From: Lentisphaerae bacterium GWF2_49_21 | Lineage (GTDB): Bacteria; Verrucomicrobiota; Lentisphaeria; Victivallales; GWF2-50-93 | DNA length: 64,000 nucleotides | Assembly: GCA_001804805.1 (NCBI GenBank) | Contig: MHBH01000077.1 | Location: 87,355-151,354, forward strand | Direction of reading: 5' to 3' | Shown: piece after piece, positions 8,042-35,914 of the stretch | Numbering within the stretch: the stretch's first letter is position 1 | Layout of the letters: each line of letters begins with the position of its first letter | Program-made: the position numbers and the translations under genes | Notes under the pieces: generated by a model | What the model was told of the DNA's origin: nothing | Database searches by the model: none | The model's input: only the letters and a program-made list of their open reading frames with translations

Positions 8042-8048
8042 GGTAAAC

Positions 8049-9997: not shown

Positions 9998-10027
9998 TCG
10001 ACAGGATAACAGGATTAACAGGATAAT
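9998..10027 (+). promoter_or_regulatory. promoter module copy 1: TCGACA-N18-GATAAT, spacer = 3 x ACAGGATWA
   Basis: ACAGGATAACAGGATTAACAGGATAAT differs by 1 nt from the copy at 21497..21523. An inverted partial copy (AAAATCCTGTAATCCAGTC) lies at 10049..10067. Confidence 0.45.
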
Positions 10028-10102
10028 TATGCATAAAGGAAAATCATGAAAATCCTGTAATCCAGTCAAATAATAGATTATTAATAAAAGGAGGAATTGG
10101 AA

Positions 10103-10810: not shown

Positions 10811-10839
10811 AATTGCCCTAAAAAGAAGTAGATTAAAAG

Positions 10840-10865
10840 GTTGAGGGAGGAGTCCTCCCCTCAAC
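10840..10865 (+). other. GC-rich hairpin GTTGAGGGAGGA-GT-CCTCCCCTCAAC between two genes
   Basis: About 11 bp of stem and no U-tract, 16 nt upstream of the ATG at 10882. It could be a terminator, a processing site or a 5' structure; undecided. Confidence 0.35.
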
Positions 10866-10881
10866 GCACAAGGGTTCCGAT

Positions 10882-11643
10882 ATGAAATCACGATTTACTT
10901 TGATTGAATTGCTTGTCGTCATTGCGATCATCGCAATTCTCGCTGCGCTGCTCCTTCCTGCATTGAAGCATGCAAAGGAAATGGCGAAAGACGTCGTGTG
11001 CAAAGGCCAGCAGAGGCAGTTAAGTGTCGGAGTGATAAGCTATGTTACCGATTCCGACGCCTGGCTGCCATTCAACGACATGTGGGCCTTTGATCTTTTC
11101 AGAACAGCCGGCACTCCCCCTGTCAGCCCTCCCGTGGGACTTCGGGAACCTTGGCCGGCTCACTACACCGGACTAGGCCTTTTGAAGGAACTTGACTATG
11201 TGAGAGGAGGATTGAATGTGTTCTGGTGTGGAAATGAAAGCGCAAGGCAGGGCGCGGAATGCGGTTCCGGAAACAGTACGAAAGGACTAAAAGGATTTTC
11301 GAAGGAGACACCGACTTCGACCATCCGGAACGACTATTGGTACCGCTGCGGCTGGTTCTATGAGAAGAATCTGAGCGAGAACATCGGCCTTCTGAATGCA
11401 GAAAGCGGACTCCTGATGTGCGGCGCATGGAGGAACTGGAGCGGATCTGCCAGCTATGTTCATTGGCAGGATCTCCATAATACACGAGGTTTCAACCTCG
11501 CGTTCATTGACGGGCATGGGGAATGGTATTCTTACAGTTCAAAGCCCATTCCAGACTTATGGGGTGATCTTTACGGAGACCGCTACAGACCTGATTTCCC
11601 GAAATCCACTTTGAACAAGGCGGTCTCGCTGCTTAGGAACTGA
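10882..11643 (+). CDS. prepilin-type N-terminal cleavage/methylation domain protein (DUF1559-like pseudopilin)
   Basis: N-terminus [28 protein letters not shown]; C-terminal [14 protein letters not shown]. Confidence 0.85.
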
Positions 11644-11680
11644 TATTTATAATTCATTTAAAGGAAAGGTTGAATATAAG

Positions 11681-20883: not shown

Positions 20884-21477
20884 TCAATTGGATCGGCGCA
20901 GGTCTTCTTGTAATTTTTTAACGGCCTTATACTCCTCCGAATCTGATTCCGTGCCGGCGACTACCGCCTTCACTATCGCCGAAATCTTCTCCTGCTGCTC
21001 CGGATTTATCCCGGCTTTTCCAAGTATTTCAGAAACTCCATCGATATATTTTTTTCCGCTGGCGGAAAAAAATATTATGACAAGAGAAGTCTTCACGACA
21101 CACGGATCACACTTGGTTCCGCCAAGGACATTGTCCGCCAGCTTGCACGCCTTTTCAAGATCCTTCTGGGCTTTGTCATCCAGCTTGAACTGACTGGAAA
21201 GAAGCGCCTTGACCTTCTCGATTACAGGTGATGCTGATTCGTCCTTTGAAGCCCTTCCGAGGCACTGGTCGGCGAACTTGCACCATTTGGCGCAGCCAAG
21301 ATCTATTCTGGGATTCTTGATCTCATTGCTGCATTTTTTGCAGATAAGGAAAGGTTCATCTTTCCAGAATTCCATCTCATTGCCGCAGTGCGGACATTTC
21401 AGCGTGAATATGTCCTCCGGCTTCCAGAATCTCATGTCCTGCCCCGGACACCTTGGCCTTGCGTTGTCGGATTTCAT
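20884..21477 (-). CDS. zinc-ribbon domain hypothetical protein
   Basis: 197 aa. N-terminal CPHCG...CKKC plus further Cys pairs. I recognise no family. Confidence 0.55.
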   Translation of the reverse strand: MKSDNARPRCPGQDMRFWKPEDIFTLKCPHCGNEMEFWKDEPFLICKKCSNEIKNPRIDLGCAKWCKFADQCLGRASKDESASPVIEKVKALLSSQFKLDDKAQKDLEKACKLADNVLGGTKCDPCVVKTSLVIIFFSASGKKYIDGVSEILGKAGINPEQQEKISAIVKAVVAGTESDSEEYKAVKKLQEDLRRSN

Positions 21478-21493
21478 TTATCAAAACCTTTTT

Positions 21494-21523
21494 TTGACAG
21501 GATAACAGGATTTACAGGATAAT
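21494..21523 (+). promoter_or_regulatory. promoter module copy 2: TTGACA-N18-GATAAT, spacer = 3 x ACAGGATWA; candidate promoter of the C1 operon
   Basis: Perfect -35 at 21494-21499 and GATAAT at 21518-21523. The next plus-strand gene starts at 21985, implying a leader of about 450 nt. Confidence 0.5.
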
Positions 21524-21600
21524 AATATTGTATGCCTTAGCATGCGGAAATCAAGCTTAATATTTTCATGTAACCGCCGGACTCGCAACGTTCCTATTTC

Positions 21601-21740
21601 GCTTGCAGTAGTCCGCCTAGGCGGATTTGCGCGTTAAGTAGGTACGTGCTTTAGCATGTACCATCTTAGTTTCCAGGAATGGGACAGGCTAAAGCCCGTC
21701 CCTACTTTAAAAAAACGCGCAAACATGCGCTACTACGAAC
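21601..21740. repeat. two-shell composite REP element (140 bp) with an extra 10-bp stem
   Basis: Outer shell: GCTTGCAGTAG+TCCGCCTAGGCGGA and GCGCAAACATGCGC+TACTACGAAC. Extra stem TTTGCGCGTT/AACGCGCAAA. Inner REPIN at 21638-21705. Confidence 0.8.
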
Positions 21741-21771
21741 GGAATCCTTTATTTTGCCAAGTCAGATGCTT

Positions 21772-21795
21772 TTGCCGGCGAGACGCCAGCGCTCC
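21772..21795 (+). repeat. left copy of a 24-bp perfect inverted repeat bracketing the homocysteine methyltransferase gene
   Basis: TTGCCGGCGAGACGCCAGCGCTCC. Its exact reverse complement is at 22925-22948. It contains a local GGCG-AGA-CGCC hairpin. Confidence 0.8.
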
Positions 21796-21805
21796 CTTAT
21801 TGATA

Positions 21806-21856
21806 ATAATGCCAATATGCCTTGCCATTTCTCAGGGCAAAGCATATTGGCATTAT
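21806..21856 (+). other. long hairpin (about 20 bp) in the putative operon leader
   Basis: ATAATGCCAATATGC-C-TTGCC[atttctcag]GGCAA-A-GCATATTGGCATTAT. No U-tract follows. Confidence 0.6.
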
Positions 21857-21984
21857 CCTGCAATATACTTGAAGTTTGCTATAAAGCTGCAAAACCCGGC
21901 TTTTATTTATTCGGGTGTATAATTATTGTTTGGCGTTTACTTGAGCGATGCAATATTTTACCAAAATTATTTTAGGAGGCTGAT

Positions 21985-22881
21985 ATGGGCAGGGGAAAAA
22001 TTGTTGACGCGCTGAAGAGCGGAAAAATCCTGGTTTCCGACGGGGCATGGGGGACTTTCCTTCAGAAAAAAGGACTTAAGCCGGGCGAGTGTCCGGAACT
22101 CTGGTGCATAGACCGTCCGGACGATGTCTATGATGTCGCCAAGAACTACATCGATGCCGGTGCGGACATGGTCGAATCCGACAGTTTCGGCGGAACCTGC
22201 TTCAAGCTCGAGCACTACCACCTCGCGGAAAGGACCGCCGAGATCAACATTGCCTCCGCCAAAATCTCCCGCAAGGCCGCCGGTGACAATAAATGGGTCA
22301 TAGCGTCAATTGGACCGACAGGAAAAATGCTTGTCATGGGGGATGTCACCGAAGACGATCTCTACAAGGCCTTCAAGGAACAGGCTGTCGCGCTGGAAAA
22401 AGGTGGAGCCGACGCCATCTGCATCGAGACAATGAGCGCGACCGACGAGGCTGCAATAGCCATCAAGGCCGTCAAGGAAAACACAAAATGCGAAGTCATC
22501 TGCACGTTCACCTTCGAACTGACCGCGCACGGCGGATACAGGACCATGATGGGCGTCACTCCTGCCGATGCCGCAAAGGCCGCGCTTGAAGCAGGCGCCG
22601 ACATAATCGGTCCGAACTGCGGGAACGGCATTGAACGAATGATCGAGATCGTCAGGGAAATAAAGAAAGCCGCTCCTAAGTCATTTATCCTCGTCCATGC
22701 GAACGCCGGACTTCCGAAAAACGTCAACGGCGTTGACATATTCCCGGAGACGCCAGAAGAAATGGCGAAGAGGGTTCCTGAACTTATCAAAGCCGGCGCA
22801 AACATCATCGGCGGCTGCTGCGGAACGACACCGGCACATATAAAGGCGATAAAGCAGGCGGTGGAAACCTGCAAGAAGTAA
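21985..22881 (+). CDS. stand-alone homocysteine S-methyltransferase domain protein (MetH N-terminal module type)
   Basis: 298 aa. LVSDGAWGT, IGPTG, ETMSA, GPNCG, HANAGLP and GGCCGTTPAHIK align with the MetH Hcy-binding domain, including the Zn-ligand cysteines. Confidence 0.85.
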   Translation: MGRGKIVDALKSGKILVSDGAWGTFLQKKGLKPGECPELWCIDRPDDVYDVAKNYIDAGADMVESDSFGGTCFKLEHYHLAERTAEINIASAKISRKAAGDNKWVIASIGPTGKMLVMGDVTEDDLYKAFKEQAVALEKGGADAICIETMSATDEAAIAIKAVKENTKCEVICTFTFELTAHGGYRTMMGVTPADAAKAALEAGADIIGPNCGNGIERMIEIVREIKKAAPKSFILVHANAGLPKNVNGVDIFPETPEEMAKRVPELIKAGANIIGGCCGTTPAHIKAIKQAVETCKK

Positions 22882-22882
22882 T

Positions 22883-22917
22883 TTGATACTTGATACTCGT
22901 AACTTGAAATTGGAAAT
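22883..22917 (+). repeat. 5 x 7-mer tandem array (TTGATAC TTGATAC TCGTAAC TTGAAAT TGGAAAT)
   Basis: Begins 2 nt after the stop codon at 22879-22881. Confidence 0.65.
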
Positions 22918-22924
22918 TATTATC

Positions 22925-22948
22925 GGAGCGCTGGCGTCTCGCCGGCAA
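22925..22948 (-). repeat. right copy of the 24-bp inverted repeat (GGAGCGCTGGCGTCTCGCCGGCAA)
   Basis: Exact reverse complement of 21772-21795. Confidence 0.8.
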
Positions 22949-22970
22949 TTGATTTAGAAATTCGAAATTA

Positions 22971-22995
22971 GTTGGAGTTCACAGCTTTAGCGTGT
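22971..22995 (+). repeat. single GTTGGAG-headed REP
   Basis: GTTGGAGTTCACAGCTTTAGCGTGT, identical to 18803-18827. Confidence 0.75.
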
Positions 22996-23038
22996 TCTTT
23001 AATTATCGATAAATAATATAATTGGAGGAATTGTTAAT

Positions 23039-24106
23039 ATGAAAACCAAATTCACCGCCACAGGCATTGGCAGTATGCCATTTCCGGATCCCGACTACGC
23101 AGTAAAGGTATCCCTCTCGAAGATGTGCAACGCCCCGATCTGGCCCCAGCTCCCGAAGCTCGGCCTGCATGAACAGATGGAGATCCAGTATTCCGAAGGC
23201 ATGCCCTGCACAGTGATCGATGAGGAGAAGCACAGGATGTATTTCGACACGTCAAAGGATTATTCCGAATCTTTTGCGCAACTCTACGAAGGCTACATTG
23301 CCGCATCCGAGGAAGGTGGAACCAGGGATTTCTCAAAGATGGCGATAAGCCCGGATTTCTCAAAGGGGATATACGCGCTCGAAAAGGCGCTCCAGGCAAA
23401 AGGCGGAGCAAAACTCCCGTTCGTGAAAGTGCAGACGACCGGTCCGTGCAGTTTCGCCCTGACACTCGTCGACGAGAACAAGCGCGCCATCTACTACAAC
23501 GAAGAGTTCCGCGACATGATCCTCAAGGCTCTTGCCATGAAATCCCGCTGGCAGATCCAGATGTTCCAGCCCTATGCTGAAAAGATCATCTGCTTCATCG
23601 ACGAACCCATCCTCTCGGCTTTCGGAAGCTCGACATATGTATCGGTCAAACGCGATGACGTTGTCATACTCGTAAACGAAGTCTCGGAAGCCATCCATGC
23701 GGAAAAAGCCCTTTCCGGAGTCCATTGCTGTGGAAATACAGAATGGAGCATACTCATCGACGCCGGCGTCGATATCGTAAACTTCGACGCATTCGGTTTC
23801 GGCGAGACGATCGCAATGTATCCGGAAGCTGTAAAGATGCATCTCGAACGCGGTGGAATCCTCGCATGGGGCGTTGTGCCTACATCGACCGCGATAAGGG
23901 ATCAGACCGTCGAGAAGCTTGCCGCGCATCTCGAGAAAATGATGGACAATCTGGCTTCAAAGGGAATCAACAAAAAGCTTATCGCGGAACAGGCGATGAT
24001 CACACCGTCATGCGGAACTGGCTCGATGGAACCGGCTGATGCGGAAAAAGTCTTCGAGACATTGTTCCAGCTCTCGAACACAATGAAAGCTAAGTATGGT
24101 TTTTAA
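23039..24106 (+). CDS. core-MetE-like (cobalamin-independent methionine synthase catalytic-domain family) zinc methyltransferase; candidate corrinoid-protein-dependent methionine synthase
   Basis: 355 aa. TATGIGSMP (compare MetE TTTIGSFP), IDEPIL, GVHCCGN and ITPSCGTG (MetE-type His/Cys/Cys zinc ligands). No N-terminal MetE domain. Confidence 0.65.
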   Translation: MKTKFTATGIGSMPFPDPDYAVKVSLSKMCNAPIWPQLPKLGLHEQMEIQYSEGMPCTVIDEEKHRMYFDTSKDYSESFAQLYEGYIAASEEGGTRDFSKMAISPDFSKGIYALEKALQAKGGAKLPFVKVQTTGPCSFALTLVDENKRAIYYNEEFRDMILKALAMKSRWQIQMFQPYAEKIICFIDEPILSAFGSSTYVSVKRDDVVILVNEVSEAIHAEKALSGVHCCGNTEWSILIDAGVDIVNFDAFGFGETIAMYPEAVKMHLERGGILAWGVVPTSTAIRDQTVEKLAAHLEKMMDNLASKGINKKLIAEQAMITPSCGTGSMEPADAEKVFETLFQLSNTMKAKYGF

Positions 24107-24262
24107 GTAGGTACGGGCTTTAGCCTGTACCATTGGTACACCCTAAAGGGCATACCTAAGAAGTAGGGACGGCCTTTCTGTGTCCGGCGTAGCCTTTTGG
24201 CGAAGTCGGAAGGCTGTCCCAATCAAGAACGTAGAATGGTACAGGCTAAAGCCCGTACCTAC
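24107..24262. repeat. compound REPIN filling the whole intergenic gap (4 REPs)
   Basis: GTAGGTACGGGCTTTAGCCTGTACC at 24107-24131, directly after the TAA stop. Its perfect inverse is at 24238-24262. Inside are a degenerate REP (24135-24160) and GTAGGGACGGCC[37-nt insert]GGCTGTCCC (24163-24220). Confidence 0.85.
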
Positions 24263-24278
24263 TTTAAGAAGATAAACT

Positions 24279-25058
24279 ATGAAAATCGCAATATCAGGGA
24301 AAGGGGGGGTGGGCAAATCGACACTTGCCGCCGCCCTCGCCCTGCTCATGGCGGAGAAGAAGAGAAAAGTGCTTGCGCTAGACACGGATCCGGCTGCGAA
24401 TCTCGCAAACGCCATCGGCATTCCTGCAGACATCAGGAACAAGATTATCCCAATTTCCAAACAAAAATCCCTGATCGAAGAGCGCACCGGCGCAAAAGTG
24501 AAACAATACGGACAGATGTTCAAGCTGAATCCTGAAGTCTCTGACATCGCCGACAAGTACGCCGTCAATTACAATGGAGTCTCCCTCATCGTGGTTGGCG
24601 CGATCGAAAAAGGCGGGAGCGGCTGTGCGTGTCCGGAGAGCGTCCTGATCAGGGCACTTGTGACAAACCTCGTGCTCCACAGGAACGAGGCGCTGATAAT
24701 GGACATGGAGGCCGGTGTCGAACATCTCGGCAGGGCGACCGCCAGCGGTGTCGACGGCATGATCATAGTCGTGGAGCCCGGACAGCGTTCCATCGACTGC
24801 GCAAAGGCGATAATCGGGATGGCCCATGACATCGGACTGAAGAAGCTGCATATCGTCGCAAACAGGGTGACCTGCCATGAAGACGAAACTTTTGTCAAGA
24901 ATTCTTTTCCTGACCAGGAACTGCTTGGATCTATCCCATTCTCGGAGAAGGTCCGCAAGTCCGATATGAACGAGGTTTCCGTCCTTGAGAAGATAGAACC
25001 GGAGACAAGAAAGGCTTTTGAATCAATTCTAAATAATGTTGAGAGGCTTTTAAAATGA
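24279..25058 (+). CDS. cooC: CODH/ACS nickel-insertion ATPase (CooC/AcsF family)
   Basis: 259 aa. P-loop GKGGVGKST; CooC CxC motif (GSGCACPES). Confidence 0.85.
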   Translation: MKIAISGKGGVGKSTLAAALALLMAEKKRKVLALDTDPAANLANAIGIPADIRNKIIPISKQKSLIEERTGAKVKQYGQMFKLNPEVSDIADKYAVNYNGVSLIVVGAIEKGGSGCACPESVLIRALVTNLVLHRNEALIMDMEAGVEHLGRATASGVDGMIIVVEPGQRSIDCAKAIIGMAHDIGLKKLHIVANRVTCHEDETFVKNSFPDQELLGSIPFSEKVRKSDMNEVSVLEKIEPETRKAFESILNNVERLLK

Positions 25059-25267
25059 AAACGGATGTCGTGCGTGAAAAATATGTCCGTCTCATGACGG
25101 AAATCGAGGATCTCGAGGACAAGATCGAGAAAGCTGAGAAAAAAGTTTCAAAGAAGGCCGGAAAGAAGGCTGAAAAGGAGCTTGAGCTGATGAAAGAACA
25201 GCTTGCGGCGAAAAGGAACGAGCTCGCAAGGATCAGCGACGGCTGCGGAAAACCGCATGCGCATTAG
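25055..25267 (+). CDS. small coiled-coil protein with a C-terminal Cys/His tail (hypothetical)
   Basis: 70 aa. ATGA overlap with cooC (translational coupling). Lys/Glu-rich heptad-like sequence ending in DGCGKPHAH. Confidence 0.45.
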   Translation: MKTDVVREKYVRLMTEIEDLEDKIEKAEKKVSKKAGKKAEKELELMKEQLAAKRNELARISDGCGKPHAH

Positions 25268-25269: not shown

Positions 25270-25439
25270 GTAGGGACGGCCTTTCTGTGTCCGGCGTAGC
25301 CTTTTGGCGAAGTCGGAAGGCTGTCCCAAGCAAGAAAGCAGAATGGTACAGGCTAAAGCCCGTACCTAAGAAGTAGGGACGGCCTTTAGGCTGTCCCAAG
25401 TAAGAATGTAGAATGGTACAGGCTAAAGCCCGTACCTAC
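25270..25439. repeat. two tandem REPIN doublets
   Basis: 25270-25327 is identical to 24163-24220 (the insert-bearing REP). Paired REP at 25345-25366. GTAGGGACGGCCTTTAGGCTGTCCC at 25373-25397 is the insert-free version. GGTACAGGCTAAAGCCCGTACCTAC at 25415-25439. Confidence 0.85.
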
Positions 25440-25448
25440 TTAAACAAA

Positions 25449-26279
25449 ATGTCCTACACAATAGCAGTGACAGGCAAAGGCGGGGTCGGCAAGACGACAG
25501 TGACCGGGCTTATCATCAACCGGCTCCTGGCGAACGGACGGACGCCTGTGCTTGCCGTAGACGCGGATGCAAATTCATGCCTGCATTCCGTTCTCGGGGT
25601 GACGGTTGAGAATTCTGTCGGCAAAATCCGTGAAGAAGCACGAGAGGAAGCGTCGAAGGGAAAAGTCACGGGAATCGCAAAACAGCAGATGCTCGAAATG
25701 AAGATAGCAGAATGTCTTGTCGAAGCGAAGGATTTCGATCTTATCGCGATGGGCAGGCCCGAAGGACCGGGCTGCTACTGCTACGCGAACAATGTATTGA
25801 GGGACGTAATCCGGAAACTTTCATCGAGCTATCCATACGTGGTAATCGACAACGAGGCGGGACTTGAAAACCTTTCGCGGCGTATTGTCCAGAAGGTCGA
25901 TCTTCTTGTGATGGTCGCGGATCCTTCGAAGAACGGAATCGAGACTATCAGGCGTCTTCACAAGCTTGCCTTTGAGATGAAAATAGATTTCAAGAAGCTC
26001 TGCATCTTCATCAACAGGACCAGGGACGGCAAGATTCCTGAAGAGGCGAAATATCTGAAGAATGAGACTGAAGCTGATTTTATCATACCTCTACCCGACA
26101 ACAAGGAAATTGCATCATTCTCGGAAAAGGGAACTTCACTGTTCGAGCTTTCCGTTGAGAACGAAGTGTCCAAGATAGTAGATGAATTTGTAGGACAATT
26201 GGATTGCATATTTGGCTGCGCCAAATCTGCAAAAGCAACTGCGTTGCAGGAGAAAATGGCAGCGAAGCTGCACATATAG
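25449..26279 (+). CDS. cooC: CODH nickel-insertion ATPase (CooC family), second copy
   Basis: Start at the ATG at 25449 (the upstream part of the ORF is REP sequence). GKGGVGKTT P-loop and GPGCYCY CxC motif. Confidence 0.8.
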   Translation: MSYTIAVTGKGGVGKTTVTGLIINRLLANGRTPVLAVDADANSCLHSVLGVTVENSVGKIREEAREEASKGKVTGIAKQQMLEMKIAECLVEAKDFDLIAMGRPEGPGCYCYANNVLRDVIRKLSSSYPYVVIDNEAGLENLSRRIVQKVDLLVMVADPSKNGIETIRRLHKLAFEMKIDFKKLCIFINRTRDGKIPEEAKYLKNETEADFIIPLPDNKEIASFSEKGTSLFELSVENEVSKIVDEFVGQLDCIFGCAKSAKATALQEKMAAKLHI

Positions 26280-26311: not shown

Positions 26312-28261
26312 ATGGCCAAGGAAGCTAAAAGACCGGAAGAGCTGGTTTCCGACCAGGCGTCGATCGAGACGATATTGAAAGCTCAGCTCGACTGCGTCGA
26401 AACTTGTTTCGTCAGGGCTGAAGCCCAGGGGATGCCCTGCAAGTTCGGAACACTCGGAGTATGCTGCAAGATATGCCACATGGGACCGTGCAAGATAACT
26501 CCGAAGTCTCCGCGCGGCGTCTGCGGAGCCGATGCCGACACGATTGTCGCCAGGAATTTCCTGCGCGAAACAGCTGCCGGAACTGCAGCCCATTCTGACC
26601 ATGGGCGCCATCTCGCCCTACGTTTCAAGAAGATTGCCGAAGGCAAGGAACCGGACTACAAGATCACCGATGTCAAGGCACTCCACAGGATAGCCGGAAA
26701 ATATGGAATAAAGACCGAAGGACGCGCTCAGAATGAAATAGCCCTTGAACTTGCGAATACGTTCATGTCCGAATTCACATCCCAGGAGGAACCGCTCAAG
26801 ACATTGAATCTAGCGCCGGAAAAGACCCGGGCCGTATGGAAAAAGACCAAAATCGAACCATACGGGGCAGACAGGATGGTGGTCGAGGCGATGCACCGTA
26901 CACATATGGGAGTTGATCATGATTACAGGAATCTTCTCGACATGGCCTTCAGGACTTCACTTGCAGACGGCTGGGGCGGAGCGCATGTTGCAACGCAGAT
27001 TTCCGACATAATGTTCGGAACGCCTGAACCTGTCAAAAGCAGTGCCAATCTCGGTGTGCTCGAAGAGAAGAAGGTAAATATAATTGTTCATGGACACGAG
27101 CCTGCTCTTTCGGAAATGCTCGCAACTGCGGTCTATGATCCGGAGATAATTGAATATGCGAAGAAGGCTGGAGCTGAAGGAGTGAACCTTGCAGGGCTCT
27201 GCTGCACTGCGAATGAGATCCTCATGCGCCGCGGAATAAATGTCGCCGGAAACTTCCTCCAGCAGGAACTTGCAATCATCACCGGCGCCGTTGAAATGAT
27301 GGTGGTCGATGTGCAGTGTGTGATGCCGAGCCTTCCGTCGGTCGCCGCGTCATATCATACATTGGTTGTTTCTACAACGGACATCGCAAAGACCATCGGA
27401 GCAATCCACATGGAGTTCGACGAGGATCACGCCTATCTTTCGGCAAAAAACTTAATTAAGAAGGCTATCGACAATTTCAAGAACCGCGATCCGAAGAAAA
27501 TGCAGATCCCGAAAGTCAAGGAACCTCTCATCGCAGGATTCAGCGTTGAAGCGATAAGATACATGCTCGGTGGATCATTCAGGGCTTCATTCCGCCCTCT
27601 CAACGACGCCATAATCCAGGGCAGGATCCGCGGAATCGCCGGAATCGTCGGCTGCAACAACATCAAGACTAAAACAGATTCGTATATCAACTCTATTACA
27701 AGAGAACTTATTAAACGGAACGTCCTAATTCTTAAGACGGGATGCGCCGCACAGGCCTCAGGCAAGGCTGGAAAACTTACTCCTGAAACCGCTCTGGGAG
27801 AGGCCGGACAGGGACTGCGCGAAGTCTGCGAGGCCGTAGGAATTCCGCCGATCCTCCACATGGGGAGCTGTGTCGACAACACGCGCATCCTCGAGGCTGC
27901 TTCTGAAATCGTCTATGAAGGCGGACTCGGTGACAGCATCGCGAAAGTTCCCGCAGTGGGCGTCGCCCCCGAATGGATGAGCGAGAAGGCCGTCGCGATC
28001 GGTTGTTATTTTGTGGCGTCAGGAGTCGATGTGATCCTTGGACAGCCTTTCCATATTTCCGGTTCGGAGAACGTGGTGAAATATCTCGACGAAGGGGCGA
28101 GGGAGAAGTACGGCGGGGGTTTCATATATATTCCTGATCCTATGGAGGCCGTCGAGAAGATCATGTCGCTCATCGAGGCAAAGCGTGAGAAGCTCGGTAT
28201 CAACAAGAAGGCCGAACGCAAGCTGCTCGACATGAAAGATAGGAGATCTACCAATGTCTAA
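26312..28261 (+). CDS. cooS: anaerobic Ni-Fe carbon monoxide dehydrogenase catalytic subunit
   Basis: 649 aa. N-terminal Cys clusters (CKFGTLGVCCKICHMGPC...CGA), AHSDHGRHL, GCNN, HMGSCVDN. Confidence 0.92.
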   Translation: MAKEAKRPEELVSDQASIETILKAQLDCVETCFVRAEAQGMPCKFGTLGVCCKICHMGPCKITPKSPRGVCGADADTIVARNFLRETAAGTAAHSDHGRHLALRFKKIAEGKEPDYKITDVKALHRIAGKYGIKTEGRAQNEIALELANTFMSEFTSQEEPLKTLNLAPEKTRAVWKKTKIEPYGADRMVVEAMHRTHMGVDHDYRNLLDMAFRTSLADGWGGAHVATQISDIMFGTPEPVKSSANLGVLEEKKVNIIVHGHEPALSEMLATAVYDPEIIEYAKKAGAEGVNLAGLCCTANEILMRRGINVAGNFLQQELAIITGAVEMMVVDVQCVMPSLPSVAASYHTLVVSTTDIAKTIGAIHMEFDEDHAYLSAKNLIKKAIDNFKNRDPKKMQIPKVKEPLIAGFSVEAIRYMLGGSFRASFRPLNDAIIQGRIRGIAGIVGCNNIKTKTDSYINSITRELIKRNVLILKTGCAAQASGKAGKLTPETALGEAGQGLREVCEAVGIPPILHMGSCVDNTRILEAASEIVYEGGLGDSIAKVPAVGVAPEWMSEKAVAIGCYFVASGVDVILGQPFHISGSENVVKYLDEGAREKYGGGFIYIPDPMEAVEKIMSLIEAKREKLGINKKAERKLLDMKDRRSTNV

Positions 28262-31200
28262 GATAATCTGCGGAAGCGCAATTGACGGAGCTATCGAATG
28301 GGTGGCGAAAGCCGAGGCCATACTCGACAAGGCTGTAAAGCTAAAAGGCGAATCAAGTCCGGTCGCATTTCCGAACACTGCCTATTACCTGCCTGTGATC
28401 TATTCGTTCACCGGCGAGAAGATGGAGAAGCTCTCGGATTTAAGAAGGATACTCAAGCTGGCTAAAAGCCTTCTTCCGGCGCGCCCAACCGACAAAGTTT
28501 GGCTGCCGTATCTCGGAAAGGCGCTTGATGCGGGCGCAGCAGCACTTTTCGCCTGTGAAGTGATCGAGGCGTGCAAATATCTCATCGGCCCAAATCCGGT
28601 CGACGGTATCTGGCTCGGTGCGGCGAACGATGTCATCATGCGTGAACGCGGAATTGAATTCGTCGACGGCACTGCTCCAGGATTCGCCGCCATCACCGGC
28701 GCGGCTCCGAACAGCAAGATAGCCGTAAAGATCGCGCGCGAACTCCAGGAAAAGAACCTTTATGTGTTCATGGCCGGCTGCACCAATGGCAAGCAGTTCG
28801 CCGAACAGCTCGCAGAAGAAGGCGTACAGCTCGGATGGGAGACACGGCTTGTTCCTTTCGGACGCGATGTGTCCGCTCTTATCTACGCACTTGGATTTGC
28901 GAACCGCGCAGCCCTTTCGTTCGGAGGAGTAAAACCCGGCGACTTCAAAGGAAACCTTAAATACAACAAGGAAAGAATATTTGCATTCGTCCTCGCATTG
29001 GGCGAAGTCACGGCCGACAAATATGCGGCGGCCGCAGGAGCGATCAACTACGGATTCCCTGTTATCGCCGACACCGCGATCCCGGAAATCCTACCGACCG
29101 GCGTCTGCACATACGAACATGTAGTCTCAAAAATCCCGCATGAGACGATGGTCGAGAAGGCGCTTGAAGTCAGAGGCTGCAAGATCAGGATAACAAAAGT
29201 TCCGATCCCGGTACCGTATGGCCCGGCGTTCGAGGGCGAACGCATCCGCAAGGCCGATGTCCATGTCGAATTCGGCGGGAACAAGACACCTGCATTCGAG
29301 TTTGTGACATCCGTAGATCTGGAAAGCATCAACGACGGCGAGATCGAGATCATAGGCCCTGACATTGACAAGGTAAAGGAAGGAGAAGCACTTCCTTTCG
29401 GAATCTGGGTCGAGGCCGCAGGCCGCAAGATGCAGTCCGACTTCGAACCCATCCTCGAACGCCAGATCCATCACCTGGTGAACGGCGCCGAGGGAATCTG
29501 GCACATGGGCCAGCGCGACATCATCTGGACGCGTGTCTCGAAAAACGGCTTCGCAAAAGGCCTTCGGTTGCGCCATTACGGCGAAATCCTTCATGCAAAA
29601 CTGCTTTCGGATTATCCGGCAATCGTAGACAAGGTGAAGGTCACACTAATAACCGATCTCAAGGAAGTTGAGAAACGCCTTGCCATAGCGAGGAAAGTCT
29701 ATGACGAACGCAACCGCCGTCTTGAATCCATGACAGACGAATCGGTCGACACCTTCTATTCATGCCTGCTCTGCCAGTCATTCGCGCCGAACCACGTCTG
29801 CATAATCACACCAGAACGACTCGGACTTTGCGGCGCATACAACTGGCTCGATGGAAAGGCCGCGTTTGAAATCGACGAGACCGGGCCCAACCAGCCTGTC
29901 AAGAAAGGCGAATGCCTCGATCCGGTCAAGGGCATATGGAAAGGCATCAACGATTATGTGTTCCCTAACAGCCATAAGACCGTGGATACGTTCTGCGCAT
30001 ATTCGATCATGGACAGGCCGATGACAAGCTGCGGATGCTTCGAAGTCATCTGTGCATATCTGCCGGAATGCAACGGAGTCATGGTAGTCAACCGCGAATT
30101 CCAGGGCGATACGCCTGTAGGAATGACGTTCTCCACCCTTGCCGGAAACGTCGGAGGCGGACAGCAGACGCCGGGATTCATGGGCTGTGGAAAAGTATTC
30201 CTGACTTCAAGGAAATTCCTCGGTGCCGAAGGAGGATTCAGAAGACTTGTCTGGATGCCGAAGGAGCTCAAGGAGCTTCTCGCGGCCGATCTCAAGCTGC
30301 GCTTCAAGGAACAGGGGGTTACTGATCTCATGGACAAAATAGCAGACGAGACGGTCGCGACCGAAGCCGGCGAAGTCCGCAAATATCTTGAGAAAATCGG
30401 CCATCCCGCGATCAAGATGGAGGACATGGGAGTATATGCGCATTCAGGAACCGCCGAAGCTGCTAGCCAGCCCGAGCAGGCTCCTGTCGAAATAAAACCT
30501 GTTGAGAAATTAGATGCTCCTGCCACAGACAGGAAACCGGAGGAGGAGGAAATGAAGATAACGCCTGAACTGATAAACCAGATCAAGAATCAGATCTCAA
30601 AAGAGATTTCCGATGAGCTCAAATCGACAATCGCCAAAGACATTGTCAAGGATATCATCGGAACACTGAGCGAGAAATATCTCAGGGAGAAGATCACGCA
30701 GGAACCTGCGGCGAAACCAGAGGTTCCCAAAACTGAACCAGTTCCTGTAAAGACTGTTGAAGCTCCGGTTGAAAAACCCCTCGCACAACAGGCCCCTGCC
30801 CCTACGCCAGTTGAAAGATTATCCTCGCTGAAGACCTTCAAGATCAGGAAGGACAAATGCGAGGTTCCGGTCTGGACCGTCAAGCTTGGCGCTGGCAAGA
30901 AGGAAGGCGGAACTAGAGGAAAGACCTATTCCGTCGGAGGTGCGACCTGCATGCCGTTCCATCTCTGGGAAGGTGAAATGCCAAACAGGCCTCTTGTAGC
31001 AATGGAAGTGTTCGATGTAGTCAACGATAAATATCCGCAGGTCCTCAGAAACACCTACGGCGATCTTCTTGCGAATCCCGCAAAGATGGCGAAGGCCTGC
31101 GTCGAGAAATACGGCGCGGATCTCATAAGCATCCGGCTCGAGGGGACTCATCCGGAAAAGGGCAACCGTTCACCTGAAGATTCAGTTAAACTCGTCAAGT

Positions 31201-31796
31201 CAGTTCTTGAAGCCGTCGATGTTCCGCTGATCATAACCGGGCACAACAACTTCGACAGGAACAACGAAGTGATGAAAGCTGTCGCACAGGCTTGCGCCGG
31301 AGAGAACCTGCTCCTCAACTGGGTAGAACAGAACAACTACCGCACCATCGCCGGAGCCGCGCTCGGTTACGGGCATTCGCTCGTTGCGCAGTCCCCGATC
31401 GACGTGAACATTGGCAAGCAGTTGAACATCCTCCTGACCAACATGGATGTGAAGATCGAACAGATCGTGATGGATCCGATGACAGGTTCCGTCGGCTACG
31501 GGATCGAATACACATACTCCGTGATGGAGCGCGTGAGATACACCGGACTGACCGGCGATAAGATGCTTGCAGGACCGATGATCGTCTCACCCGGACAGGA
31601 ATGCGCCAAGGTGAAGGAAGCCAAGGCCGAGGAGAAGGACTTCCCGGCATGGGGTGATCTCAAGAAACGCGCCGCCCTCTGGGAATACACGACTGCGGCG
31701 AATTTGCTTTATTCCGGCGCCGACATCCTGATCATGTACAGCCCGGAAGCGGCCGTAGCAATAAGGAAGTTAATAACAAAATTAATTAATAAATAA
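28254..31796 (+). CDS. acsB: acetyl-CoA synthase (AcsB) fused to the corrinoid Fe-S protein small subunit (AcsD)
   Basis: 1180 aa. Residues 1-725 are AcsB-like (CLLCQSFAPNHVC...LCGA and the A-cluster motif SCGCFE). Residues 726-859 form a Pro/Glu/Lys-rich linker with an amphipathic helix. Residues 860-1180 are AcsD/CdhD-like (VGGATCMPFH..., TIM-barrel type). Confidence 0.85.
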   Translation: MSKIICGSAIDGAIEWVAKAEAILDKAVKLKGESSPVAFPNTAYYLPVIYSFTGEKMEKLSDLRRILKLAKSLLPARPTDKVWLPYLGKALDAGAAALFACEVIEACKYLIGPNPVDGIWLGAANDVIMRERGIEFVDGTAPGFAAITGAAPNSKIAVKIARELQEKNLYVFMAGCTNGKQFAEQLAEEGVQLGWETRLVPFGRDVSALIYALGFANRAALSFGGVKPGDFKGNLKYNKERIFAFVLALGEVTADKYAAAAGAINYGFPVIADTAIPEILPTGVCTYEHVVSKIPHETMVEKALEVRGCKIRITKVPIPVPYGPAFEGERIRKADVHVEFGGNKTPAFEFVTSVDLESINDGEIEIIGPDIDKVKEGEALPFGIWVEAAGRKMQSDFEPILERQIHHLVNGAEGIWHMGQRDIIWTRVSKNGFAKGLRLRHYGEILHAKLLSDYPAIVDKVKVTLITDLKEVEKRLAIARKVYDERNRRLESMTDESVDTFYSCLLCQSFAPNHVCIITPERLGLCGAYNWLDGKAAFEIDETGPNQPVKKGECLDPVKGIWKGINDYVFPNSHKTVDTFCAYSIMDRPMTSCGCFEVICAYLPECNGVMVVNREFQGDTPVGMTFSTLAGNVGGGQQTPGFMGCGKVFLTSRKFLGAEGGFRRLVWMPKELKELLAADLKLRFKEQGVTDLMDKIADETVATEAGEVRKYLEKIGHPAIKMEDMGVYAHSGTAEAASQPEQAPVEIKPVEKLDAPATDRKPEEEEMKITPELINQIKNQISKEISDELKSTIAKDIVKDIIGTLSEKYLREKITQEPAAKPEVPKTEPVPVKTVEAPVEKPLAQQAPAPTPVERLSSLKTFKIRKDKCEVPVWTVKLGAGKKEGGTRGKTYSVGGATCMPFHLWEGEMPNRPLVAMEVFDVVNDKYPQVLRNTYGDLLANPAKMAKACVEKYGADLISIRLEGTHPEKGNRSPEDSVKLVKSVLEAVDVPLIITGHNNFDRNNEVMKAVAQACAGENLLLNWVEQNNYRTIAGAALGYGHSLVAQSPIDVNIGKQLNILLTNMDVKIEQIVMDPMTGSVGYGIEYTYSVMERVRYTGLTGDKMLAGPMIVSPGQECAKVKEAKAEEKDFPAWGDLKKRAALWEYTTAANLLYSGADILIMYSPEAAVAIRKLITKLINK

Positions 31797-31902: not shown

Positions 31903-33240
31903 ATGGCATTGACAGGATTACAGATACAGAAACTTCTACCGAAGACGAACTGCAAGGAATGCGGTTCGAACACGTGTCTCGCGTTTGCGATGAAGCTTGC
32001 AGCGAAAAAAGCGGAACTTTCACAATGCCCGTACGCGTCAGAAGAGGCGAAGAAAGTACTCGGTGCGGCAAGTGAACCACCGGTGAAATCAATCGTACTC
32101 GGACCCGACAAGAAACTCAAACTCGGTGAGGAGACTGTCCTTTACAGGCACGAAAAGACTTTTGTCAACCAGACCGCCCTCGCTGTCAACATAAACGACA
32201 CCGACAAGCCGGAGTCGATTGAAAAGACGCTCCGCGCGGTCGGCAGCTACCTGCTCGAGCGTGTCGGCGAAAAGCTCATCGTCGACATGGTCTGCATAAC
32301 CTGCAAGAGCGGAGATCCTGCGAAGTTCGCAAACATCTGCTCCAAGGCGTATGAGATCGCAAAGCGCCCGATCGTGATGCGCAGTTCCAGCGTCCAGGAA
32401 ATCTCAGCCGCGGCGAAGGCGGTGAAAGGTTCGAACAGCGTTATCGCATCGGCGAATCCAAAGACAGCCGATGAACTGAAAAAAATCGCCGAGGAGAACG
32501 GTCATGCGCTCGCATTGACAGCTCCTAACCTCGATGAGCTTTCAGCGCTGACTTCAAGGATCAAGGAGTCCGGCTTCAACAACATCATCCTCAATTTCGA
32601 GACGTTCTCGCTTTCAGAGCAGTTCCAGGTGAATTCAATCGCACGCAGGGCGGCGCTGAAGGACTCGTTCAAGCCTCTCGGATATCCTTCGATCAAATTC
32701 ATCGATGGAGGAGAAATGTTCGACATCGCCGGCGAGGCGATAAACGAGATCACAAAATACGGGGGGATCTGCGTGCTTCCATACTTCGATTCGGCAATGC
32801 TGGTTTCCCTGATGACGCTCCGTCTGAACATCTATACGGATCCTCAGAAGCCAATCCAGGTTGAGCCGAAAGTATATTCTATCGGCGAACCGGACAAGAA
32901 CTCCCCGGTATTCGTCACGACAAACTTCTCGCTCACATATTTTATTGTATCGGGCGAGATCGAGAACAGCGGGACAAACGCGTGGCTCGTGGTTCCAGAG
33001 TGCGAAGGCATGAGCGTCCTGACCGCCTGGGCTGCCGGTAAGTTCTCCGGCGCGTCGATCGCGAAGTTCATAAAGGGGATCGGGCTCGAGGAGCAGGTCG
33101 CCACGCGTCAGATCATAATCCCCGGCTACGTCGCGCAGATCAGCGGTGAACTCGAGGAAAGCCTTCCGGGATGGAAGGTCGTCGTAGGGCCGCAGGAAGC
33201 CGCCGACATTGAAAGCTTCGTGAAGGCGAGGATTAAGTAA
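31903..33240 (+). CDS. acsC: corrinoid iron-sulfur protein large subunit
   Basis: 445 aa. N-terminal 4Fe-4S motif CKECGSNTCLAF...C. AAGGAGG ribosome-binding site. Confidence 0.9.
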   Translation: MALTGLQIQKLLPKTNCKECGSNTCLAFAMKLAAKKAELSQCPYASEEAKKVLGAASEPPVKSIVLGPDKKLKLGEETVLYRHEKTFVNQTALAVNINDTDKPESIEKTLRAVGSYLLERVGEKLIVDMVCITCKSGDPAKFANICSKAYEIAKRPIVMRSSSVQEISAAAKAVKGSNSVIASANPKTADELKKIAEENGHALALTAPNLDELSALTSRIKESGFNNIILNFETFSLSEQFQVNSIARRAALKDSFKPLGYPSIKFIDGGEMFDIAGEAINEITKYGGICVLPYFDSAMLVSLMTLRLNIYTDPQKPIQVEPKVYSIGEPDKNSPVFVTTNFSLTYFIVSGEIENSGTNAWLVVPECEGMSVLTAWAAGKFSGASIAKFIKGIGLEEQVATRQIIIPGYVAQISGELEESLPGWKVVVGPQEAADIESFVKARIK

Positions 33241-33263: not shown

Positions 33264-35195
33264 ATGCCACTCATCACATTCAAACCATCCGGCAAGACGA
33301 TTGATGTTCCAGCGGGAACAGAACTCCTCGAAGCCGCTAGAAAAGCAGGGATAAAGATCGACTCCCCCTGCGGGGGGAAGGGTTCCTGCGGAAAATGCAT
33401 TGTGCATGTGCTTTCCGGAATTGTCGATTCCGACAGCCTCGGTGTTCTTCCGCAGACCGCGGTCGCCGACGGCTATGTGCTTGCATGCAAGACAAAAGTT
33501 CTTGATGGTCAGATAACTGTAGACATACCGGAACAGGTCGGCAGGACCGGCGGAAAATTCACAAAGGCGACCACCGAGGATTTCAACCTGATCCGCCAGG
33601 AACTTCTTCCGGAACGATGGGAATACGAACCGCTGGCGATAAAATGGATGATCAAGGTTCCCCCTGCAAAGATCGAGGACGGACTTTCCGACCTCGACCG
33701 ACTCTCACGTGCGCTTAAAAGGGAATGGGGCGAATGCGAGATCATATATAGCCTTCCCGTCCTGAGAAAAATCCCCGACACGCTCCGCGAAAAGGATGGA
33801 ATGGTCACTTTCACGTTGGTCAATGACGCCAAGCGCTGCTATGTGATCAACATCCAGCCGGGGGATACGACAGTCAATCATTATGGTGTCGCCATCGATG
33901 TCGGGACGACAACAGTCGCCGTGGAACTCGTCTATCTCTTCCTCGGTGAAGTCGTGGCGGTGAGAAGCGACTACAACGACCAGATAGACTGCGGACTCGA
34001 CGTGATAAGCAGGATAAACTACGCAAAGAATCCAGAACGACTGGAAGAGCTCAGGAAAAGAGTATTGAATTCCGTCAACCGGCTGATAAAACAGGCCGCT
34101 GAAAGCCATAATATTGATCTGAACGACATTTCGAGCGGTGTTATTTCCGGCAATACTGCGATGATCCATCTGATGCTCGGGATCAATTCAGAATATCTGC
34201 GTTTGGAACCTTATACTCCGACCATCCGCGAATCTCCATTCCTGACCGCCGCCGAAGTCGGACTGGACATCAACCCGCAGTCATGGCTTTATTTCTCCCC
34301 CCATGTAGGAAGCTATGTCGGAGGTGACATCACTGCCGGGATACTCTGCACGGATCTTGCGACTGACAGCAAGGACATCAGCCTTTTCATCGACATCGGA
34401 ACCAACGGAGAACTTGTGATAGGAAATTCTGATTTCATGCTGACATGTGCGTGTTCCGCAGGACCGGCGTTCGAAGGCGGCGGCATCGAGTTCGGGATGA
34501 GGGCCGCACTTGGAGCAGTCGAAAAAGCCGAGGTCGATCCGAAGACTGGACGCGCGCATTACTGGACAATAGGAAATGTGAAGGCGAAAGGAATTTGCGG
34601 ATCGGGAATGATCTCTCTTCTTGCCAATCTCTATCTGACGGGATGGATCGATGCATCCGGCAAGTTCAACCGCCAGATGAAATCAAAGTATATCATCGTA
34701 GAAGGACGTTTTGCAAAATATATCATCGTGCCGGCAAAGGAAAGTGCGACAGGCAAAGACATTACCATCAGCGAGATGGACATCGAGAACATTGTCCGTG
34801 CAAAAGCCGCGATCTACTCTGCGTGCAACCTGATGCTCGAACAGGTCGGGATGAAGTTCGAGGATCTCTCTACAGTATATATAGCGGGTGGATTCGGAAG
34901 GTCGCTCGATCTTGAAAAGGCGATTGTCATCGGACTCGTGCCCGACCTGCCACGCGAAAAATTCCATTATATCGGCAACTCGTCCCTGATGGGCACATAC
35001 ATGGTGCTTCTTTCAAAGGAGTTCAGGGAGAAGCAGCTCGAGCTTGCACGGAAGATGACCTATGTCGAACTCAACACCGCCCCGGCATACATGGACCAGT
35101 ACATAGGCGCCCTATTCCTCCCGCACACCGACATCAACAGGTTCCCGACAGTTAAGAAAATGAAAGATGATTTCACCACGAAGGGCACGAAGTAA
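33264..35195 (+). CDS. corrinoid activation/regeneration protein (RACo-type; 2Fe-2S ferredoxin + ASKHA ATPase)
   Basis: 643 aa. N-terminal plant-type ferredoxin motif (CGGKGSCGKC...C) followed by an ASKHA-like domain (AIDVGTTT, DIGTNGE). Confidence 0.85.
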   Translation: MPLITFKPSGKTIDVPAGTELLEAARKAGIKIDSPCGGKGSCGKCIVHVLSGIVDSDSLGVLPQTAVADGYVLACKTKVLDGQITVDIPEQVGRTGGKFTKATTEDFNLIRQELLPERWEYEPLAIKWMIKVPPAKIEDGLSDLDRLSRALKREWGECEIIYSLPVLRKIPDTLREKDGMVTFTLVNDAKRCYVINIQPGDTTVNHYGVAIDVGTTTVAVELVYLFLGEVVAVRSDYNDQIDCGLDVISRINYAKNPERLEELRKRVLNSVNRLIKQAAESHNIDLNDISSGVISGNTAMIHLMLGINSEYLRLEPYTPTIRESPFLTAAEVGLDINPQSWLYFSPHVGSYVGGDITAGILCTDLATDSKDISLFIDIGTNGELVIGNSDFMLTCACSAGPAFEGGGIEFGMRAALGAVEKAEVDPKTGRAHYWTIGNVKAKGICGSGMISLLANLYLTGWIDASGKFNRQMKSKYIIVEGRFAKYIIVPAKESATGKDITISEMDIENIVRAKAAIYSACNLMLEQVGMKFEDLSTVYIAGGFGRSLDLEKAIVIGLVPDLPREKFHYIGNSSLMGTYMVLLSKEFREKQLELARKMTYVELNTAPAYMDQYIGALFLPHTDINRFPTVKKMKDDFTTKGTK

Positions 35196-35314: not shown

Positions 35315-35914
35315 ATGTCCAAGACCGAAGGGCAGAACGAGGCGATCAGGATTGCGGCTGCGAAACTCGCAGGGGCGGATATGTCCAGGCGTGCGGACAA
35401 CCTCGGGTTCAGCTTCATGGACAAGGGAACAATCCTAATACGTGCCTTCGGGGCCGACTACACGGTTGATTTGAAAAGTTTCGATGTCAGGAATAAAAAG
35501 GCAGGTCAGCCGGTGAGACCCGACCTGAAGATCATAATTCTCCATTATCTGCTCTTCGATAATAAATTTTCCGAAACCGGAAAATTTATAACTTTCAGGG
35601 ATCTGCCTGGCGGACAGTTCTATCTTGAGCCTTACAAATCCAGGAGTGTCAACATCTTGTCCAGCGTGATAAAGGACGACGTTGCCCGATTGAAGAAGAA
35701 TCTTGGCCGTCTTGACTGGAAGGATAAGACTCCCGGCGACATCGGGGCGGAAATCCACGTTATTGGGAAAATCAAAGTGAACCTGATCTATTACAAGAGC
35801 GACGAAGAAATGCCGGCGACCGCAGATTTCGTATATGATTCGTCCATAAAGAACGTATTCAGCACGGAAGATGTGGTTGTAATGGCCTCATTGATATGCA
35901 GGATGCTGTTGTAA
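35315..35914 (+). CDS. hypothetical protein, DUF3786-like (a family I recall as co-occurring with acs clusters)
   Basis: 199-aa ORF, last gene of the cluster. The family assignment is from memory of its general character, not from a motif. Confidence 0.45.
   Translation: MSKTEGQNEAIRIAAAKLAGADMSRRADNLGFSFMDKGTILIRAFGADYTVDLKSFDVRNKKAGQPVRPDLKIIILHYLLFDNKFSETGKFITFRDLPGGQFYLEPYKSRSVNILSSVIKDDVARLKKNLGRLDWKDKTPGDIGAEIHVIGKIKVNLIYYKSDEEMPATADFVYDSSIKNVFSTEDVVVMASLICRMLL

Follow-up and report, generated by a model that had tools for sequence, protein, structure and literature searches.

Gene organization of the operon

[quoted passage not shown] From their sequences, these two are predicted to be unrelated zinc-dependent homocysteine methyltransferases, co-transcribed with a complete CODH/ACS machinery. 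The operon contains the following features:

21985..22881, + strand: ORF1, 298 aa, predicted stand-alone MetH-type homocysteine-binding, zinc-dependent methyltransferase module (PF02574), comparable to split-MetH/MtgE
23039..24106, + strand: ORF2, 355 aa, predicted MesB-family core methionine synthase
24110..24259, no strand assigned: repetitive extragenic palindromic (REP)-like repeats occupying the MesB-cooC1 spacer
24279..25058, + strand: cooC1, cooC-type nickel-insertion ATPase (CbiA/ParA/NifH-family P-loop matches), in a position kept in related loci
25055..25267, + strand: small conserved ORF, 70 aa, predicted coiled coil with C-terminal ISDGCGKPHAH
25413..26279, + strand: cooC2, cooC-type ATPase (Pfam match), true start probably the ATG at 25449
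26312..28261, + strand: CooS/AcsA, nickel CODH catalytic subunit (TIGR01702, 634 bits; PF03063, 560 bits)
28254..31796, + strand: AcsB~AcsD fusion, 1180 aa (NF040764, 1052 bits; NF003376, 381 bits)
31903..33240, + strand: AcsC, large corrinoid/Fe-S subunit of the corrinoid iron-sulfur protein (CFeSP) (NF003195, 507 bits; PF04060 and PF03599)
33264..35195, + strand: RACo/AcsV, ATP-dependent reductive activator of the corrinoid (NF040756, 711 bits; Fer2, RACo_linker, Raco_middle and RACo_C_ter domains)
35315..35914, + strand: DUF3786 protein (PF12654, 134.8 bits), final gene of the unit

Matches to Pfam and NCBIfam models showed that CODH, ACS, both CFeSP subunits and the nickel-insertion ATPase are all encoded in the operon. 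The gene content given in the initial annotation (two cooC genes, cooS, acsB-D, acsC and RACo) was thus recovered, with the DUF3786 gene in addition, and ORF1 and ORF2 were found at the positions and on the + strand where it had placed them, with all of its quoted motifs. In the AcsB~AcsD fusion, PF18537, PF03598 and PF19436 cover residues 22-725, corresponding to an acetyl-CoA synthase with an N-terminal CODH-binding domain, and PF03599 covers residues 886-1167, corresponding to the small CFeSP subunit, with a linker of ~130 residues between them. The fusion was found in most of the ~85 related loci examined (referred to below by L-numbers).

The two predicted homocysteine methyltransferases

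PF02574 was the sole domain found in ORF1 and matched it along the entire profile (positions 1-283 of 283; E 7.8e-71, 239.7 bits). The best PDB matches were the homocysteine domains of MetH (8ssc, 152 bits; T. maritima 1q7m, 151 bits), and MetH structures scored 147-152 bits versus 71 bits for BHMT. In the alignment, Cys212, Cys278 and Cys279 of ORF1 fall on the residues that bind zinc in E. coli MetH (Cys247, Cys310 and Cys311), and the residues binding the amino-acid part of homocysteine are kept; the GGCCGTTPAHIK motif was confirmed. The complete PF02574 match, the MetH-like PDB scores and the zinc cysteines together point to ORF1 as a free-standing version of the MetH homocysteine module, as the initial annotation had described it. 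Within MetH, this module carries out the transfer of the methyl group from methylcobalamin to homocysteine. A betaine- or S-methylmethionine-dependent homocysteine methyltransferase was ruled out as an identity for ORF1, which is much nearer to the MetH modules than to BHMT.

Stand-alone PF02574 proteins are known from Phaeobacter and Ruegeria, where genetic evidence shows them to be needed as subunits of split methionine synthases, in partnership with a corrinoid protein encoded on its own and an activator of the RamA/RACo type (PMC5764234; PMC12478193); modular sharing of homocysteine modules between systems has also been documented (PMC12478193). Other members of the ORF1 family were found in two further settings. 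Relatives with 74-75% identity in L095-L098 adjoin a small B12-binding protein, with RACo, and a member in L011 adjoins MetY, the O-acetylhomoserine sulfhydrylase that makes homocysteine. Judged by their neighbours, these settings fit a generic role in transfer from methyl-corrinoid proteins to homocysteine.

The L095 region (4397-13357; L096-L098 are alike) contains the gene for the small B12-binding protein followed by the PF02574 gene, in a corrinoid methyl-transfer cluster separate from CODH/ACS. RACo is encoded divergently, together with a MetH-activation-domain protein (PF02965) and a regulator of the PocR/AraC type; nearby are rhaM and genes for URO-D-family methyltransferases and a sugar ABC transporter. 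From its gene content, this cluster looks like a demethylase system ending on homocysteine instead of tetrahydrofolate (THF).

In ORF2, the motifs TATGIGSMP, HCCGN and PSCG were confirmed. No Pfam family matched, PF01717 included, and the MesA-type NCBIfam model PRK00957 gave a weak match below its cutoff (E 3e-8; 33 bits versus a 258-bit cutoff). Nothing was matched among PDB sequences even at E<=1, nor in a phmmer comparison with E. coli MetE. By these family models and prototypes, ORF2 would fall outside both MetE and MesA. Since the PDB and E. coli MetE searches were empty, a core-MetE sequence from Dehalococcoides was needed for its classification, and this was recovered from metagenome contigs by means of the published cloning primer A481_fw (Deobald et al.). 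Two primer matches were obtained, of which the one in L008 was a chance match and was dropped. The other, in L009, identified a protein of 343 aa, as reported, containing the reported zinc residues His215, Cys217, Asp236 and Cys312. The A481 reverse primer was not matched exactly in L009, yet the encoded C-terminus (KHGTV) agrees, and the gene is located among methionine-salvage and S-adenosylhomocysteine (SAH)-hydrolase genes, as published for the cbdbA481 operon (PMC7005905).

ORF2 and the Dehalococcoides core-MetE share 36% identity from end to end (BLASTP, 226 bits), and the phmmer match to the 343-aa protein reached 230.9 bits (E 1.3e-72; residues 5-354). The MesB family has been defined by a phmmer score of at least 173 bits to DET0516/cbdbA481, or 130 bits in a broader survey (PMC7857596). 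His229, Cys231, Asp250 and Cys325 of ORF2 align with the four Dehalococcoides zinc ligands, and its homocysteine contacts Ser12 and Asp188 with Ser15 and Asp178; in the MesB zinc site an Asp replaces the Glu of MetE, and Asp250 is the corresponding residue in ORF2. In a tabulation of 151 family sequences, the homocysteine Ser/Asp and zinc residues were kept in at least 93%, the zinc ligands in at least 97%. Both CFeSP subunit genes (AcsC, AcsD), a further mark of MesB, share the operon with ORF2.

The AlphaFold2 model of ORF2 (pLDDT 90.3) had MetE structures as all of its top 19 Foldseek PDB matches, with TM scores of ~0.6 on the length of ORF2 and ~0.3 on the two-domain MetE targets. Model and length predict a single barrel of the MetE C-terminal type, lacking the folate-binding N-terminal domain. 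Taken together, a score above 173 bits, conserved ligands and a MetE-like predicted fold argue for membership of ORF2 in the MesB family, in line with the core-MetE-like enzyme proposed initially. An MtaA/URO-D-type enzyme, the alternative placement considered in the initial annotation, was ruled out by homology and by the MetE-like predicted fold. In vitro, MesB uses methylcobalamin and not methyl-THF (PMC7005905).

Thousands of ORF2 homologues were found, 70-90% identical across phyla. When the library was clustered at 50% identity, the ORF2 clade shrank to a few representatives with 55-62% identity, and the rest of the MesB family, including the Dehalococcoides type, was at most 46% identical to ORF2. 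The protein carries the label "hypothetical protein" at NCBI, an annotation that can be improved immediately.

Distribution of the operon and its genomic surroundings

Genes for MesB of the ORF2 clade were found in 480 species genomes in a scan with one genome per species, the phylum make-up being taken from the top 80 species. These belonged to Lentisphaerota, Bacillota, Spirochaetota, Planctomycetota, Verrucomicrobiota, Kiritimatiellota, Bacteroidota, Ignavibacteriota, Fibrobacterota, Acidobacteriota/Aminicenantes, Omnitrophota, KSB1, Zhuqueibacterota, Raymondbacteria and Desulfobacterota. The order ORF1-MesB-CooC-CooC-CooS-AcsB~D-AcsC-RACo was found repeatedly across ~14 phyla, and essentially all related loci contain MesB followed by cooC-cooC-cooS-acsB~acsD-acsC-RACo. 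A PF02574 gene was located just upstream of MesB on the same strand in 59 of the 76 informative loci (78%), with a median gap of 68 bp and 65-96% identity to ORF1. The initial annotation had called the pairing of a MetH-type homocysteine module with a core MetE unusual; it is instead the rule. Some loci have the PF02574 gene in two tandem copies, and L003 has three homocysteine methyltransferases. Median identities to the window were 73% for MesB, 74% for ORF1, 80% for AcsB and 68% for CooS, a similar conservation of all components, such as would follow if the operon were transferred as one unit.

No gene for AcsE, the pterin-binding methyltransferase that normally supplies methyl groups to CFeSP, was found, as the initial annotation had noted for the window. 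Among the three profiles it had named, PF02574 matched ORF1, PF01717 did not match ORF2, and the pterin-binding domain PF00809 was absent from the real-looking ORFs of the window. When MetF and the pterin domain of E. coli MetH were compared by phmmer with every stop-to-stop ORF of 60 aa or more, no homologue was obtained at E<=10 in the window or in the ~85 related loci. As a positive control, the MetH pterin-domain query detected the AcsE proteins of Moorella and Carboxydothermus among PDB sequences (~1e-13). No one-carbon genes, AcsE and MetF included, were present in the 10 kb flanking the window on each side (~84 kb of the 264.5-kb contig covered in all), so that no canonical acsE lies adjacent to the window over that distance. 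The canonical Wood-Ljungdahl arrangement, with acsE within the acs cluster, was not found in the window or in any locus; the related loci were likewise negative for AcsE within 10 kb on each side.

CFeSP is the sole corrinoid protein nearby in all but one of the related loci. Of the usual partners of a split-MetH homocysteine subunit, the window encodes neither a small B12-binding protein (PF02607/PF02310) nor a pterin module, and the same holds for all but one of the ~85 loci. The exception is L060, where a gene for a small PF02607/PF02310 corrinoid protein (8099-8746) lies inside the CODH/ACS operon, directly upstream of the ORF1 homologue. In L099, an MtmB-like gene of the monomethylamine methyltransferase family (6877-7713) is located directly upstream of the PF02574-MesB pair.

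When 390 unassigned ORFs of the related loci were clustered, no recurrent acsE, metF, folD, fhs or transporter gene was detected among the neighbours. The sole recurrent extras were regulators, an FAD/NAD(P) oxidoreductase in 9 loci and a CooF-like ferredoxin in 8. Representative oxidoreductase and ferredoxin ORFs lie between cooC2 and cooS in L061 (Aminicenantes) and L029 (Omnitrophota), both of which are without a PF02574 gene; L004 is a further one of the Aminicenantes/Omnitrophota loci noted for recurrent extra genes.

The remaining features of the operon surroundings are:

21843..21984, + strand: 5' region kept among Victivallales relatives, probably promoter/operator
36434-36508, - strand: tRNA (Rfam), downstream of the DUF3786 gene
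37259-37286: strong terminator
37579-41991: complete glycine-cleavage operon (gcvT, gcvH, gcvPA, gcvPB), directly downstream of the CODH/ACS unit

The 5' region showed 69-88% identity by blastn to the upstream regions of L013, L014, L015, L018, L019 and L020 across its final ~100-200 nt (for L020, 33 nt). Rfam searches of the window and seven diverse loci at the gathering score detected only tRNA, and a permissive search (E<=1) of 21450-24300 gave only chance-level microRNA and small nucleolar RNA matches on a palindrome. These matches are due to a long near-perfect inverted repeat at 21794-21872, TAATGCCAATATGCCTTGCC...GGCAAAGCATATTGGCATTA, ~120 nt upstream of ORF1, which could be an operator or the terminator of an upstream unit.

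A 22-nt palindrome, GGTACGNGCTTNAGCNNGTACC, has eight copies in the window (at 18244, 20727, 21641, 24110, 24238, 25345, 25415 and 44010), with none expected by chance. It is part of ~100-nt repeats that fill the MesB-cooC1 and small-ORF-cooC2 spacers and appear, from their sequence, to be a REP/MITE-like (miniature inverted-repeat transposable element) element within the operon. The annotated cooC2 start (25413) falls inside one repeat copy, and as the long ORF begins with 24 nt of REP-like repeat, the ATG at 25449 is probably the real start. The small ORF between the two cooC genes possibly encodes a metal-handling accessory peptide; its C-terminal motif, SDGCGxP(H/R), recurs in the corresponding place in 21 of 86 loci, most of them from bacteria of the Planctomycetes-Verrucomicrobia-Chlamydiae (PVC) group.

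The CODH/ACS unit is set apart from the glycine-cleavage operon by the tRNA, a 186-aa ORF without family match and the strong terminator. Elsewhere in the window, genes for sulfatases, pectate lyases and glycoside hydrolases abound, a content as expected for what would be a polysaccharide-degrading anaerobe. At 57683-59319 the window also contains a gene pair for McsA-like (UVR motif) and McsB-like (ATP:guanido phosphotransferase, protein arginine kinase type) proteins, here in a Lentisphaerota genome.

Proposed methyl transfer in the operon and comparison with known systems

The gene identities, the catalytic residues, the gene order and the local absence of AcsE and MetF are the basis of the interpretation that we favour, with somewhat better than even confidence: that both enzymes hand the methyl group of methyl-CFeSP to homocysteine, the methyl group probably coming from the cleavage of acetyl-CoA. 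Methionine synthesis directly from methyl-CFeSP was one of the possibilities raised in the initial annotation; it is the best-supported one and agrees with the published proposal for MesB (PMC7857596, PMC7005905), while from the above observations we infer that each enzyme draws on CFeSP, and also which way the methyl group flows and where it comes from.

In this scheme, AcsB would cleave acetyl-CoA and pass the methyl group to the cobalt of CFeSP, formed by AcsC and the AcsD portion of the fusion protein. MesB, and probably also ORF1, would then take the methyl group off CH3-Co(III) and pass it to homocysteine, whose thiolate is activated by zinc, giving methionine and Co(I). CooS would oxidise the released CO to CO2, and RACo would repair corrinoid that has been oxidised to Co(II). 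Since this type of operon contains no pterin-binding AcsE, cleavage of acetyl-CoA by AcsB is the most likely source of the methyl group. For Dehalococcoides, it has been proposed that MesB draws the methyl group from the CFeSP of an incomplete Wood-Ljungdahl pathway, and the methyl group of methionine derives from that of acetate (PMC7857596). The scheme proposed here is the same, except that CODH is present.

Several points weigh against this interpretation. Two enzymes for one reaction, and three in L003, look redundant, and 17 of the 76 informative loci do without ORF1. No S-adenosylmethionine, B12 or T-box riboswitch was found by Rfam that would link the operon to methionine regulation. 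The corrinoid protein encoded upstream in L060 is a hint that a MetH-type corrinoid protein, rather than CFeSP, may be the preferred partner of ORF1. A full complex of nickel, Fe-S and B12 enzymes would be costly if it supplied the methyl group of methionine alone. If AcsE, MetF, MetH or MetE were encoded beyond the ~84 kb seen, CO2 may supply the methyl group through the normal methyl branch.

The two enzymes may instead divide the labour, MesB alone using CFeSP and ORF1 being the homocysteine module of a split MetH, with its corrinoid protein and loading methyltransferase encoded elsewhere and linked to the operon by co-regulation only. The close relatives of ORF1 in L095-L098, which pair with a PF02607/PF02310 corrinoid protein, RACo and URO-D methyltransferases, are consistent with this, as are the small corrinoid protein directly upstream of the ORF1 homologue in L060 and the documented modular sharing of homocysteine modules (PMC12478193). 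The loci without ORF1 also favour it, since the CODH/ACS-MesB unit must work there without ORF1. However, no small corrinoid protein was found near ORF1 in the window or in all but one of ~80 loci, where CFeSP is the only one present. The close spacing of the ORF1 and MesB genes on one strand (median gap 68 bp), kept in 78% of loci and across phyla, also speaks for ORF1 being tied directly in function to the products of the operon. We regard such a division as possible, though rather doubtful.

The organism could also use the ordinary Wood-Ljungdahl pathway, with AcsE, MetF and the methyl branch encoded elsewhere, CODH/ACS serving acetogenesis or CO2 fixation and the homocysteine methyltransferases being a minor tap on methyl-CFeSP. 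MesB does occur in many organisms with the full pathway, where it has been described as a methionine shortcut (Price et al., PMC7857596), and the present analysis covered ~84 kb of the genome. In contrast, across ~85 loci from ~14 phyla acsE was never found within 10 kb of the cluster and mesB was always in the lead position. In addition, the sulfatases, pectate lyases and glycoside hydrolases among the neighbours suggest that many carriers are polysaccharide-fermenting lineages not known as acetogens. This makes an ordinary Wood-Ljungdahl organism unlikely.

A reverse, catabolic flow seems similarly unlikely, if anything slightly more so. One or both enzymes would demethylate methionine or other S-methyl compounds, such as methylthio or sulfonium compounds, onto Co(I)-CFeSP, and ACS would join the methyl group with CoA and with CO made from CO2 by CooS, giving acetyl-CoA; the thiol methyltransferases would thus replace AcsE as the entry of methyl groups, possibly with homocysteine/methionine as a folate-free methyl carrier between corrinoid systems. 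The absence of AcsE, the usual methyl entry, from all clusters examined would be explained, and the two or three thiol methyltransferases per operon resemble the substrate-specific sets of methylotrophic pathways. ORF1-family genes also occur in demethylase-like clusters with URO-D methyltransferases, and the MtmB-like gene abuts the L099 operon. Zinc enzymes such as MtsA of methanogens do run methyl transfer from thioethers to Co(I). In the chemistry of MetH, moving a methyl group from CH3-Co(III) onto a thiolate is strongly favourable, so that the reverse reaction from methionine would be uphill. Both enzymes keep the residues for the amino-acid part of homocysteine, one ORF1-family member lies beside MetY, a biosynthetic setting, and neither a transporter nor a substrate-specific methyltransferase accompanies the operon consistently, all of which argues against a catabolic direction.

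It is improbable, finally, that homocysteine/methionine serves as a small-molecule methyl carrier replacing methyl-THF in anaerobes poor in the folate methyl branch, with MetH-type PF02574 modules loading methionine from various methyl-corrinoid proteins, such as those of the demethylase-like systems in L095-L098, and MesB unloading it onto CFeSP, or with these roles swapped; if true, this would be a new AcsE-free entry into the acetyl-CoA pathway for methyl groups of methylated substrates and would explain the two homocysteine methyltransferases at the head of the operon.

Both enzyme families were known already, and the idea that MesB draws on CFeSP has been published. In the open-access literature, no paper was found on a bacterial CODH/ACS operon headed by mesB, on the regular pairing of mesB with a MetH-type homocysteine module, or on the accompanying AcsB-AcsD fusion and the breadth of distribution of the operon. 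If methionine is indeed made from methyl-CFeSP as we favour, such CODH/ACS genes would be the sign of a self-contained module for passing the methyl of the acetyl group on to methionine, and metagenome surveys should then not count them as "Wood-Ljungdahl carbon fixation"; this would affect hundreds of fermentative lineages, including Lentisphaerota, Planctomycetota, Spirochaetota, Bacillota, Bacteroidota, KSB1 and Aminicenantes. The arrangement also raises the question of why a MetH-type and a MetE-type homocysteine methyltransferase stand side by side with one corrinoid protein.

A precedent for the reverse flow is the methylthiol:coenzyme M methyltransferase MtsA/MtsB of Methanosarcina, in which a zinc enzyme swaps the methyl group between thioethers and a corrinoid protein. 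It is unlike the operon enzymes in its URO-D fold family, its different corrinoid protein and its acceptor, coenzyme M.

Canonical acs clusters of the Moorella thermoacetica type group cooC with acsA/cooS, acsB (including the CODH-binding N-domain), acsC, acsD and a gene for a corrinoid activator, as the operon does here. In contrast, the window operon is without acsE, has acsD fused to the 3' end of acsB, is led by two homocysteine methyltransferase genes, and has no metF, folD or fhs nearby.

The split MetH/MtgBCDE systems of Phaeobacter and Ruegeria (Price 2018, Mausz 2025) share with the operon a stand-alone PF02574 module, a separate corrinoid protein and a RamA/RACo-type activator. However, they occur in aerobes and use a small MetH/MtgC-type B12-binding protein and a pterin-binding (methyl-THF) module, whereas in the window the Fe-S protein CFeSP is the only corrinoid protein and an unrelated MesB is encoded next door.

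MesB of Dehalococcoides mccartyi (cbdbA481, DET0516; Deobald 2020, Price 2021) is likewise a single barrel of ~350 aa without the folate domain, with the His-x-Cys...Asp...Cys zinc site and Ser/Asp homocysteine contacts, and is encoded in a CFeSP-encoding genome with CFeSP as the proposed donor. ORF2 differs in belonging to a compact sub-clade with at least 70% identity across phyla and in being the lead gene of a CODH/ACS operon, whereas the Dehalococcoides gene is found with methionine-salvage/SAH-hydrolase genes in an organism lacking CODH. D. mccartyi genomes are without a metH or bhmt homologue (PMC7005905), whereas here a PF02574 partner is usually adjacent.

The mesB-acsC-acsD operons of methanogens (Price 2021) are similar in that mesB is co-operonic with the CFeSP genes, which is the published genomic argument for CFeSP as the donor. 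Those operons are archaeal and, as described, include only the CFeSP genes, whereas the operon in the window is bacterial and combines the complete CODH/ACS with RACo and a MetH-type module. The earlier evidence linking MesB and CFeSP consisted of co-occurrence and these methanogen operons, and the present operon is the strongest bacterial gene-neighbourhood evidence so far for MesB working with CFeSP.

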